The notes under the pieces: generated by a model | The model's database searches: none | Told to the model about the DNA's origin: nothing | What the model saw: only the letters and a program-made list of their open reading frames with translations | Shown here: positions 19,732-21,669 of the stretch, in pieces | How positions within the stretch are numbered: position 1 is the stretch's first letter | Layout: each line of letters begins with the position of its first letter | Program-made: the position numbers and the translations under genes | Source: Escherichia coli | GTDB taxonomy: Bacteria; Pseudomonadota; Gammaproteobacteria; Enterobacterales; Enterobacteriaceae | Direction: 5' to 3' (one strand) | NCBI RefSeq assembly: GCF_003018255.1 | Contig: NZ_CP027440.1 | Length of the DNA stretch: 64,000 nucleotides

Positions 19732-21669
19732 GTGACTCTTAAACGGGCCTGCTCCCTGCTGACGGTGAAATCCTTCAGTGAGGATGAGAGGGTGATCACC
19801 GGGATTGCGTCAACGCCTTCTCCGGATCGGGATGGTGACATCCTGGAGCCGGAGGGCGCGGAGTTTGGCAGTGCGATCCCGTTTCTCTGGCAGCATGACC
19901 ATTCCCGCCCGGTGGGGCAGTGTACGGTGCGCCGGGTCAGCGAAGGGCTGGAAATCACGGCAACACTGGCGAAGCCCGTGCCGGATATGCCATCGCAACT
20001 GGCTGCCAGGCTGGATGAGGCCTGGGCGGCCATTAAGACCGGGCTGGTCAGGGGGCTGTCCGTGGGCTTCCGTCCTCATGAATACACCTTTCTGGACGGA
20101 GGCGGACTGCATTTTCTGCGCTGGGAGCTGATGGAGGTGTCTGCCGTCACCGTGCCCGCGAATGCGGAATGCACCATCCGGACCATTAAATCTTACGACC
20201 GCCAGTTTTCTGCCGCGTCCGGCAACCGGAAACCGGTGGTGAAAATCGCATCTTCTGCCGGCGCTGCGGCACAGTCAACAACCGTTTTTCATAAGGAAAA
20301 GACCATAATGAATATTGGCGAACAGATTAAAAGTTTTGAAAACAAGCGTGCAGCACTGGCAGCCTCCCTTGAGGAGGTCATGACCAAAGCCGCAGAGGAA
20401 GGGCGCACGCTGGATGTGGAGGAGGAAGAGCATTACGACAACACCGCAGCGGAAATACGTCAGGTGGATGCGCACCTGAAGCGCCTGCGTGAACTGGAAG
20501 CCGGTAAGGCCGCCACGGCGCAGCCGGTGAAACAGGCCGGTAACGGGAATGTGGCCGCGGTGGCTTCTGCGCCTGTGATCCGTGTGGAGCAGAAACTGGA
20601 TAAGGGGATTGGTTTCGCACGTTTTGCCAAATCGCTGGCTGCGGCTAAAGGTGTCCGCTCTGAAGCCCTGGAAGTGGCCCGTCGTCAGTATCCGGATGAC
20701 AGTCGTCTGCATCATGTCCTGAAATCGGCAGTGGGCGCGGGGACCACCACGGATCCGCAGTGGGCAGGCAGCCTGTCTGAATATCAGGAATACGCACAGG
20801 ACTTTATTGATTACCTGCGTCCTCAGACCATTATCGGGCGATTTGGTCAGGGCGGGATCCCTGCACTTCGTCAGGTGCCGTTCAATATCCGTGTGCACGC
20901 CCAGGTGTCGGGCGGTGCTGCCGGCTGGGTGGGGGAGGGTAAGGCAAAACCCCTGACGAAGTTTGATTTTGAATCCATCACCTTCAGTCATGCGAAGGTG
21001 TCGGCCATTGCGGTACTGACGGAAGAATTGATCCGTTTTTCCAGTCCGGCTGCTGATGCACTGGTCCGTAATGCGCTGGCGGAAGCGGTGGTGGCGCGTC
21101 TGGATACAGACTTTGTGGACCCGAAAAAAGCGGCGGTGGCAGATGTCTCCCCGGCGTCCATCACCCATGATGTGAAGGGCACGGCCTCAAGCGGTAACCC
21201 GGATGCGGATGCAGAGGCGGCGTTTGGACAGTTTGTTGCAGCAAACCTGCAGCCCACCGGTGCGGTCTGGCTGATGTCCAGCACCAATGCTCTGGCGCTG
21301 TCCATGCGTAAAAATGCGCTGGGTCAGAAAGAATACCCGGACATGACCCTGCTGGGTGGCTCCTTCCAGGGGCTGCCGGTGATTGTCTCCCAGTACGTGG
21401 GTGACCAGCTGGTGCTGGTGAATGCCCCGGATATTTATCTGGCGGATGACGGCGGCGTGGCAGTGGATATGTCCCGCGAGGCATCACTGGAAATGCAGTC
21501 TGAGCCGACCGGCGACAGTACCACGCCGTCGCCGGTGGAGCTGGTTTCCATGTTCCAGACAGGCAGCGTGGCCATCCGTGCGGAGCGCTGGATCAACTGG
21601 CGTCGTCGCCGTACCGCGGCGGTGGCGGTGATCACCGGAGTGAACTATGGCAGTGCGTCCGGCGGCTGA
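19732..21669 (+). CDS. fused prohead protease-scaffold-major capsid protein (HK97-like)
   Basis: 645 aa: N-terminal ~170 aa protease-like, central coiled-coil/Ala-rich linker, C-terminal ~300 aa HK97-fold capsid-like. Confidence 0.75.
   Translation: MTLKRACSLLTVKSFSEDERVITGIASTPSPDRDGDILEPEGAEFGSAIPFLWQHDHSRPVGQCTVRRVSEGLEITATLAKPVPDMPSQLAARLDEAWAAIKTGLVRGLSVGFRPHEYTFLDGGGLHFLRWELMEVSAVTVPANAECTIRTIKSYDRQFSAASGNRKPVVKIASSAGAAAQSTTVFHKEKTIMNIGEQIKSFENKRAALAASLEEVMTKAAEEGRTLDVEEEEHYDNTAAEIRQVDAHLKRLRELEAGKAATAQPVKQAGNGNVAAVASAPVIRVEQKLDKGIGFARFAKSLAAAKGVRSEALEVARRQYPDDSRLHHVLKSAVGAGTTTDPQWAGSLSEYQEYAQDFIDYLRPQTIIGRFGQGGIPALRQVPFNIRVHAQVSGGAAGWVGEGKAKPLTKFDFESITFSHAKVSAIAVLTEELIRFSSPAADALVRNALAEAVVARLDTDFVDPKKAAVADVSPASITHDVKGTASSGNPDADAEAAFGQFVAANLQPTGAVWLMSSTNALALSMRKNALGQKEYPDMTLLGGSFQGLPVIVSQYVGDQLVLVNAPDIYLADDGGVAVDMSREASLEMQSEPTGDSTTPSPVELVSMFQTGSVAIRAERWINWRRRRTAAVAVITGVNYGSASGG

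Follow-up and report, generated by a model that had tools for sequence, protein, structure and literature searches.

A fused protease–capsid gene of a lambdoid Escherichia coli prophage and its conserved internal ribosome-binding site and ATG

The head gene and its surroundings

The window analysed here, 64,000 nucleotides of the Escherichia coli contig NZ_CP027440.1 (assembly GCF_003018255.1), carries on its plus strand an uninterrupted reading frame, 19732 to 21669, that starts with GTG, stops with TGA and encodes a protein of 645 residues and 69.0 kDa. In RefSeq the protein is WP_000172990.1, named 'phage major capsid protein'. It shows 99.5% identity to the product of ORF56 of the Stx1 phage BP-4795 (CAD88857.1, deposited as 'putative major head protein/prohead protease'), and PHROG 617, the fused form of the major head protein, matches it from end to end (E = 2e-261; residues 1–639 against positions 7–626 of 626). 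The same gene, with all 645 residues aligned, is found in BP-4795 and in the Stx phages 2851, 1717, YYZ-2008 and JLK-2012; here it belongs to a lambdoid prophage of the Marienburgvirus/BP-4795 type, whose head shell it specifies. The fusion of protease to capsid protein is not new, having been annotated for two decades and having published precedents. What is new beyond the annotation is a conserved internal ribosome-binding site followed by ATG, from which the capsid protein alone is probably also made. The features of the locus are the following:

19693–19719, plus strand: terminator-like hairpin (GGACCGC-TGCG-GCGGTTT, then a T-run), downstream of the terL stop (19668) and ahead of the head gene
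19721–19726, plus strand: Shine-Dalgarno sequence AGGAGG for the full-length product, a perfect motif 5 nt before GTG 19732
19732–21669, plus strand: full reading frame, comprising protease, linker, delta domain and HK97-fold major capsid protein (domain matches, identity to BP-4795 ORF56)
19732–20193, plus strand: HK97-type (S78) prohead serine protease domain, residues 1–154 (PF04586), with the His55 codon at 19894–19896 and the Ser110 codon at 20059–20061
20194–20307, plus strand: disordered hypervariable linker, residues 155–192 (pLDDT below 50 at residues 155–189; no conserved columns in the alignment of relatives)
20293–20298, plus strand: Shine-Dalgarno-like motif AAGGAA inside the frame, 9 nt ahead of the ATG at 20308
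20308–20310, plus strand: internal in-frame ATG (Met193), where translation of a capsid-only precursor (453 residues, 48.2 kDa) probably begins
20308–20727, plus strand: delta (scaffolding) domain, residues 193 to about 332 (helices 195–222, 229–262 and 293–331; 17.9% alanine)
20728–21666, plus strand: predicted mature HK97-fold capsid protein, residues about 333–645, about 33 kDa (Pfam and fold matches)
20947–20949, 21562–21564 and 21583–21585, plus strand: codons of K406, G611 (where HK97 has Asn) and E618, which a profile alignment places opposite the residues that form the HK97 cross-link

The AGGAGG at 19721–19726 has a calculated anti-Shine-Dalgarno duplex energy of -10.3 kcal/mol. An ATG at 19730 was rejected as the start of the head gene, being out of frame and followed directly by TGA. 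Upstream of the Shine-Dalgarno sequence, the hairpin is the only terminator-like site between 19500 and 22000 and does not exceed the expectation from shuffled sequence; it is comparable in position to the putative terminator annotated just 5' of gp4 in HK97.

The head module reads terS, terL, fused head gene, a 73-residue reading frame, portal, connector and head closure. The first five of these have the same neighbours in BP-4795-type Stx phages (terS, terL, head gene, small reading frame, portal), and the order terL, fused gene, small reading frame, portal is kept among relatives down to 45% identity. HK97 has downstream genes of the same kind (connector, head-closure and gp10-like), but there the portal gene comes after terL and is followed by protease and capsid, whereas here the head gene precedes the portal gene. 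No reading frame for a separate protease, scaffold or capsid protein is present within the head module, and no decoration protein was recognised there. Two candidates for hidden head functions were discarded: the 861-residue portal reading frame gives matches to portal families alone in Pfam and PHROG, and the 73-residue frame (21714–21935) matches PHROG 829, to which no function is assigned, with no evidence that it encodes a decoration protein or a scaffold. The additional C-terminal half of the portal frame consists of a 162-bp tandem repeat (3.6 copies) and a small terminal domain.

The head-tail module around the fused gene is intact, and over 13 kb this region is 95–96% identical in DNA to its counterparts in BP-4795, 2851, 1717, YYZ-2008 and JLK-2012. 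The protein itself is 98–99.8% identical in phages 2851, 1717, YYZ-2008 and JLK-2012 and in dozens of Stx1a- and Stx2-converting phages. At the place where Stx phages carry stx, the present prophage has a TolA-C-like reading frame and a gene for an AraC-type regulator. The published work on the morphogenesis of Sp5 (PMC5155283) concerns an unrelated, short-tailed Stx2 phage. Of 5426 complete E. coli genomes, 1251 (about a quarter) carry the gene, in as many as seven copies each. In a set of proteins clustered at 50% identity, 4468 representatives match it at E ≤ 1e-10; of the 150 best, over 130 are full-length fusions of 630–680 residues.

A single reading frame of this composition could in principle arise from an assembly or sequencing error that merges adjacent protease and capsid genes, and in some relatives a stop codon at the junction does keep the two genes apart. 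Yet the identical open junction recurs in 1248 complete E. coli genomes and in 116 phage records, in both cases at a coverage of at least 80%, as well as in about 75 independent, diverged metagenomic viral contigs, so that a hidden frameshift separating two genes, which the first-pass annotation had named as a possible refutation of its reading, is absent and an artefact is extremely improbable.

Domains of the 645-residue protein

The N-terminal part of the protein matches the Pfam family Peptidase_S78 (PF04586) over residues 48–153 (E = 3.7e-8; 34.1 bits, cut-off 21). The HK97 proheadase model TIGR01543, a stricter equivalog, aligns over residues 48–154 with 46.6 bits and does not reach its cut-off of 59. 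A match to NCBIfam NF045541 (scaf_prot_MCP2, 'prohead protease/major capsid protein fusion protein') covers residues 48–287 only and scores 53.1 bits against a cut-off of 525; by this measure NF045541 is a different fusion family. When 30 relatives were aligned together with HK97 gp4, His55 and Ser110 were invariant and shared their columns with H65 and S114, the catalytic residues of gp4. In a larger alignment of 116 sequences, both residues are present in all 110 relatives that cover the protease domain, while Glu135 and Ser137 are nearly invariant. Since the catalytic histidine and serine are invariant and aligned with those of gp4, the capsid precursor can reasonably be expected to be processed by the protease that the gene itself encodes.

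An AlphaFold2 model of the full protein, computed with the 116 relatives as input, has a mean pLDDT of 86.3; it displays a compact beta-rich domain (residues 20–153), disorder (155–189), long helices (195–222 and 229–262), a second disordered stretch, three short helices (293–331) and finally an HK97 fold. The pLDDT of the protease domain exceeds 90 in this model and is 81.5 when the domain is modelled alone. The best PDB fold matches of the domain-only model are the KSHV and HCMV proteases (assemblins), at the weak level of E = 2.4e-3 and TM = 0.39; a sequence search of the PDB with the protease domain gave no meaningful match. Weak as it is, the fold match agrees with the accepted kinship of HK97-type prohead proteases and herpesvirus assemblins. 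The protease of the Salmonella prophage Gifsy-2 is said to be ClpP-like; in the present protein, the S78 match stands by itself and Pfam and NCBIfam give no ClpP or S49 match.

The protease is followed by two regions of different character. Residues 155–192 are hypervariable across relatives in both length and sequence. The delta domain begins with the two long helices, which are modelled with pLDDT above 90, and the alignment to NCBIfam TIGR01554 starts within the first of them, at residue 204. With about 140 residues the delta region is longer than that of HK97 (102 residues). Near its end lies a strongly conserved motif, K331-A-A-V-x-A-G-T-T, at whose first position 115 of 116 sequences have Lys or Arg. 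Ser104, with which the mature HK97 capsid protein begins, falls close to Thr337 in an alignment, and the Bxb1 capsid protein has its first residue opposite residue 333 or so; both alignments are loose and differ by about 5 residues. Cleavage is therefore predicted only as falling within residues ~331–338, which would leave a mature shell protein of about 313 residues and about 33 kDa.

The C-terminal part is a capsid protein by profile and by fold. Pfam Phage_capsid (PF05065) matches residues 386–635 (E = 6.3e-14; 52.5 bits, cut-off 24.2), and TIGR01554 (major_cap_HK97) matches residues 204–584 (77.3 bits, cut-off 27.5). A Foldseek search with the capsid fold retrieved Bxb1 (9d9w, E = 1e-14) and HK97 (1ohg, 2fte and 8cfa, about 1e-10), with T5, D3 and the Rhodobacter gene transfer agent in the range between these values, and also SaPI1. 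By contrast, BLASTP of the capsid part against HK97 gp5 was not significant (E = 0.29), and kinship with gp5 is visible solely at the level of profile and fold. The first-pass annotation had proposed, from the letters alone, a single 645-residue frame with an HK97-type protease at its N-terminus and an HK97-fold capsid segment at its C-terminus, and had offered domain searches as a means of refutation; the searches of Pfam and NCBIfam and the fold search recovered both. Its alanine-rich coiled-coil 'linker' needs dividing into the disordered linker proper and the helical delta domain (17.9% alanine in residues 193–332).

In an hhalign alignment to HK97 gp5, the cross-link residues K169, N356 and E363 stand opposite K406, G611 and E618; the alignment is of low probability and to a single HK97 sequence, whereas the aligned columns are strikingly conserved. 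Most relatives keep the Lys/Asn/Glu triad (99 of 116 representatives, 74 of 81 loci), among them copies from Salmonella, Enterobacter and Klebsiella that are 77% identical to the present protein. By contrast, the E. coli protein has Gly611 at the place of Asn356, as has every copy of the E. coli clade, and K406R is found in addition in the largest E. coli cluster, of 9916 members. Because Asn has been replaced by Gly, the shell of the E. coli clade is probably devoid of Lys-Asn cross-links of the HK97 type, and chainmail cross-linking has probably been lost in this clade. The succession looks like loss of the chainmail bond (N to G) and then a relaxed constraint on the lysine, which drifts to arginine.

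Loss of the cross-link asparagine might also be taken as a sign that the prophage is decaying and that the protease–capsid frame is an unused remnant. The multiplicity of copies within single E. coli genomes would fit such decay, as would the truncated or internally deleted copies found in databases (P0004–P0011 and P0100). The copy studied here is nevertheless full length, with intact catalytic residues and an intact head-tail module, and its product is 98–99.8% identical to that of the inducible, infectious Stx phages BP-4795, 2851, 1717 and YYZ-2008, which makes a non-functional remnant most unlikely.

Conservation of an internal ribosome-binding site and ATG at Met193

The ATG of Met193 lies exactly at the boundary between linker and delta domain, and in the protein alignment nearly all relatives have a methionine at this very place. 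To characterise this junction in DNA, 80 related viral contigs of 45–99% identity were fetched, which yielded 70 distinct junction sequences. The first codon of the delta domain is ATG in 68 of them and GTG in the remaining two, while methionine is depleted in the 40 residues upstream (frequency 0.002, versus 0.024 overall). An energy of pairing with the 16S anti-Shine-Dalgarno sequence of -5 kcal/mol or lower, within positions -20 to -4, is reached at 91% of the 70 junctions; the background is 16% for 969 in-frame Met codons elsewhere and 15% for all codon positions. The difference between junctions and other Met codons is highly significant (Mann-Whitney p = 3e-31), with the proviso that the sequences compared share descent and that such p-values overstate their independence. 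On average, the junction energy is -7.4 kcal/mol, compared with -6.8 kcal/mol at the genes' own starts; the AAGGAA of the BP-4795-type gene studied here is of moderate strength (-6.2 kcal/mol).

The motif varies with the clade: enterics have AAAGGAA, distant relatives AGGAGGG. Its GG core is placed 9–13 nt upstream of the start codon and occurs in all three codon phases, where it is read as KG, KE, QEG, LE or RR. Since the motif spans codon phases and encodes differing residues, the constraint bears on the nucleotides and not on the peptide.

Relatives in which the two genes are separate provide a second line of evidence. In three of them (L061, L083 and L085), a stop codon, a Shine-Dalgarno sequence and the ATG of the capsid gene are found exactly at the equivalent of Met193; the capsid protein of L083 and L085 is 52% identical to that of the fused gene. 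The gene order in the split relatives is terL, protease, capsid, portal, and the capsid gene begins about 30 nt after the stop codon of the S78 protease. Their free proteases, of 209–224 residues, are 20–30 residues longer, which is consistent with a targeting tail that is absent from the fusion.

Two readings of the junction have to be weighed. According to the first, the gene gives a single 69-kDa polypeptide with a protease on every subunit, as is assumed for Gifsy-2, and the Shine-Dalgarno sequence and ATG are a relic of the two-gene state or serve another role. Indeed, the frame is continuous in all fused relatives, annotation pipelines call one coding sequence, a 1:1 ratio of protease to capsid protein is possible in that a rough estimate of volumes lets a full set of tethered proteases fit into the procapsid, so that a second product is not required, and the Shine-Dalgarno sequence of the present gene is only moderate. 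Moreover, motifs of the Shine-Dalgarno type can sit inside genes without initiating translation. Conversely, a relic would not survive while the linker next to it randomises, down to 45% identity, and here a start codon (ATG or GTG) is retained in 70 of 70 junctions and the Shine-Dalgarno sequence in 91%, at the strength seen at real starts and across shifts of codon phase. I therefore regard a fusion polypeptide as the sole product as possible, though doubtful.

According to the second reading, the frame probably encodes a nested pair, the 69-kDa protease–capsid fusion and a 48-kDa capsid precursor initiated at Met193, and as judged from these comparisons this is the most economical account of the junction. 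The claim of the first-pass annotation that no separate protease, scaffold or capsid gene exists thus stands at the level of reading frames and is probably incomplete in function, in view of the Shine-Dalgarno sequence and ATG at Met193. A search for an internal sigma-70 promoter that might serve the capsid part found none. A weak upstream start as a family-wide means of lowering the expression of the fusion was considered and rejected: 41 of 53 upstream starts are ATG, with Shine-Dalgarno sequences of similar strength, and GTG at this place is confined to the E. coli clade. In the searchable literature, no description of an internal start in protease–capsid fusions was found.

Parallels in other viruses and a model of head assembly

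A close parallel is HK97, in which gp4 and gp5 have the same protease family, a scaffold fused to the capsid protein and the same capsid fold. One difference lies in the number of genes: HK97 has two, and its gp4 possesses a C-terminal tail of its own, whereas the present prophage has one frame and no tail. In HK97, the gp4 tail is a targeting tail for entry into the procapsid.

Comparable fusions have been published for Gifsy-2 and for many actinophages. Gifsy-2, likewise a lambdoid enteric prophage, has one gene for protease, scaffold-like middle and HK97-fold capsid protein, a 'tripartite capsid gene' (Effantin et al. 2010, Virology 402:355) as cited in PMC8538268; it uses a decoration protein similar to lambda gpD (PMC8538268). 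Genes annotated as 'major capsid and protease fusion' are listed for Arthrobacter phages of clusters AM, AU and AN, Microbacterium phages of clusters EE and EL and Rhodobacter phages of cluster RcC, and both protease–capsid and protease–scaffold–capsid fusions are reported in these three groups (PMC5513430, PMC7302621, PMC8601537). They have the same architecture, are unrelated in sequence and infect other hosts; an internal start is reported in none of the three papers.

A different set of parallels concerns the internal start.

Protease and scaffold genes nested in frame are found in lambda (C/Nu3), Mu (I/Z) and herpesviruses (UL26/UL26.5). In all three pairs the long product carries the protease and the shorter, more abundant one arises from an internal in-frame start, and the two share a C-terminal part that directs their co-assembly. 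A further example of a nested protease/scaffold gene is that of OsHV-1 (PMC11565193). Like genes of the C/Nu3 type, the present gene has a conserved in-frame internal ribosome-binding site and start codon. It departs from them in what the two products have in common: there a scaffold, which is taken out at a later stage, whereas here it would be the delta domain together with the capsid protein, the existence of two products being inferred from the junction.

These elements can be assembled into a model, which as a whole (dual starts, co-assembly, delta cleavage by the encoded protease, probable loss of the cross-link) I consider rather probable. Translation would begin at two sites, GTG 19732 giving the 69-kDa protease–capsid fusion and the Shine-Dalgarno sequence with ATG 20308 giving the 48-kDa delta–capsid precursor. 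Because the delta and capsid parts are common to both products, the two would co-assemble into procapsids, with the delta domains and the tethered proteases facing inwards; the covalent tether would thereby replace the C-terminal targeting tail used by the free gp4 of HK97. After assembly, the protease, by means of His55 and Ser110, would remove the delta domains, probably near K331-A-A-V-x-A-G-T-T, and destroy itself, leaving a shell protein of about 33 kDa that in the E. coli clade probably forms no Lys-Asn cross-links of the HK97 type.

Extended to the family, the model proposes a conserved nested pair in which the bulk of the subunits are capsid precursors and a minority are tagged with the protease and carry the enzyme inside, combined with a cross-link that the E. 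coli clade has given up and its Salmonella and Enterobacter relatives keep; this wider proposal, too, I consider rather probable. The pair would be a phage counterpart of UL26/UL26.5 with the capsid protein as the shared carrier.

The fusion as such matters little; the conserved internal start site and the replaced cross-link asparagine are modest additions, and both can be tested. If the internal start is real, it would explain how the ratio of protease to capsid protein is set and how a protease lacking a tail is encapsidated. It would likewise follow that the annotation of very common Stx-type prophages misses the most abundant precursor of the virion, and that the masses expected in proteomic analyses of phage particles from EHEC have to be corrected. 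Finally, the relatives with Asn, competent for cross-linking, and the E. coli copies with Gly, at 77% identity to each other, constitute a ready pair for studying how the chainmail is replaced.

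Protease-capsid module and cross-linking residues

Versions of the module in which the protease and capsid genes are separate occur naturally on three viral contigs:

L083, 2339-4398, unfused protease-capsid module
L085, 2292-4404, unfused protease-capsid module
L061, at the junction, unfused protease-capsid module

In all three, a separate S78 protease gene (209-224 aa) ends at a stop codon and is followed by a gap of about 30 nt that carries a Shine-Dalgarno sequence, and then by the capsid gene. The existence of such unfused versions of the same module indicates that the protease-capsid pair has undergone repeated fusion and fission inside one family.

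The residues equivalent to those that form the HK97 cross-link were located in the fused protein (645 aa):

20947-20949, K406 codon, equivalent of HK97 Lys169
21562-21564, G611 codon, equivalent of HK97 cross-linking Asn356

The Asn356-equivalent position is occupied by Gly in every copy of the E. coli clade, whereas about 90% of the relatives have Asn. The Lys169-equivalent position is Arg in the biggest E. coli cluster. Together, these two substitutions suggest that chainmail cross-linking has been lost in the E. coli clade.

Genes and signals around the capsid gene

The capsid gene is flanked by the following features:

16793-17158, HNH endonuclease gene, immediately upstream of the terminase genes terS/terL
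19693-19719, terminator-like hairpin and T-run, after terL and before the capsid gene
21714-21935, 73-aa ORF between the capsid and portal genes, overlapping the portal start
21881-24466, portal ORF (861 aa)
23408-23997, tandem repeat in the portal ORF, 3.6 copies of a 162-bp (54-aa) unit

An HNH endonuclease gene beside terS/terL is the typical arrangement of HK97-like cos-packaging phages. The hairpin occupies a place parallel to that of the putative terminator annotated in HK97 directly upstream of gp4, the free prohead protease gene; as a single match of its kind, it is not above shuffle expectation. The 73-aa ORF, a member of PHROG 829, is kept in enteric relatives (34-67% identity); a small accessory protein of the head would fit at this location.

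The Phage_portal match in the portal ORF is limited to residues 54-382. The C-terminal half contains the tandem repeat, whose copies are 95% identical (unit DDVRPMLEQMVKEAVSHIPVPRDGRDYDP.VLQKAVNDAVANIPQPADGKS.TP), followed by a terminal domain of about 100 residues containing YHPGDTVTWGGSLWHC, which may be a CBM5/12-type sugar-binding motif. Many relatives' portal ORFs also have some C-terminal extension, and in the records of the Stx phages BP-4795 and JLK-2012 the portal ORF is annotated as two ORFs.

Cargo at the stx locus

Downstream of a DNA methylase gene lie, in order:

4984-5059, tRNA-Met(CAT)
5069-5145, tRNA-Arg(TCG)
5424-5852, TolA-C-terminal-like ORF
6548-7273, AraC-family regulator
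9138-11102, SASA esterase gene

Whereas related Stx phages carry stxAB at this locus, the TolA-C-terminal-like ORF and the AraC-family regulator take its place here. The prophage in the window thus lacks stx and carries other cargo at that site.
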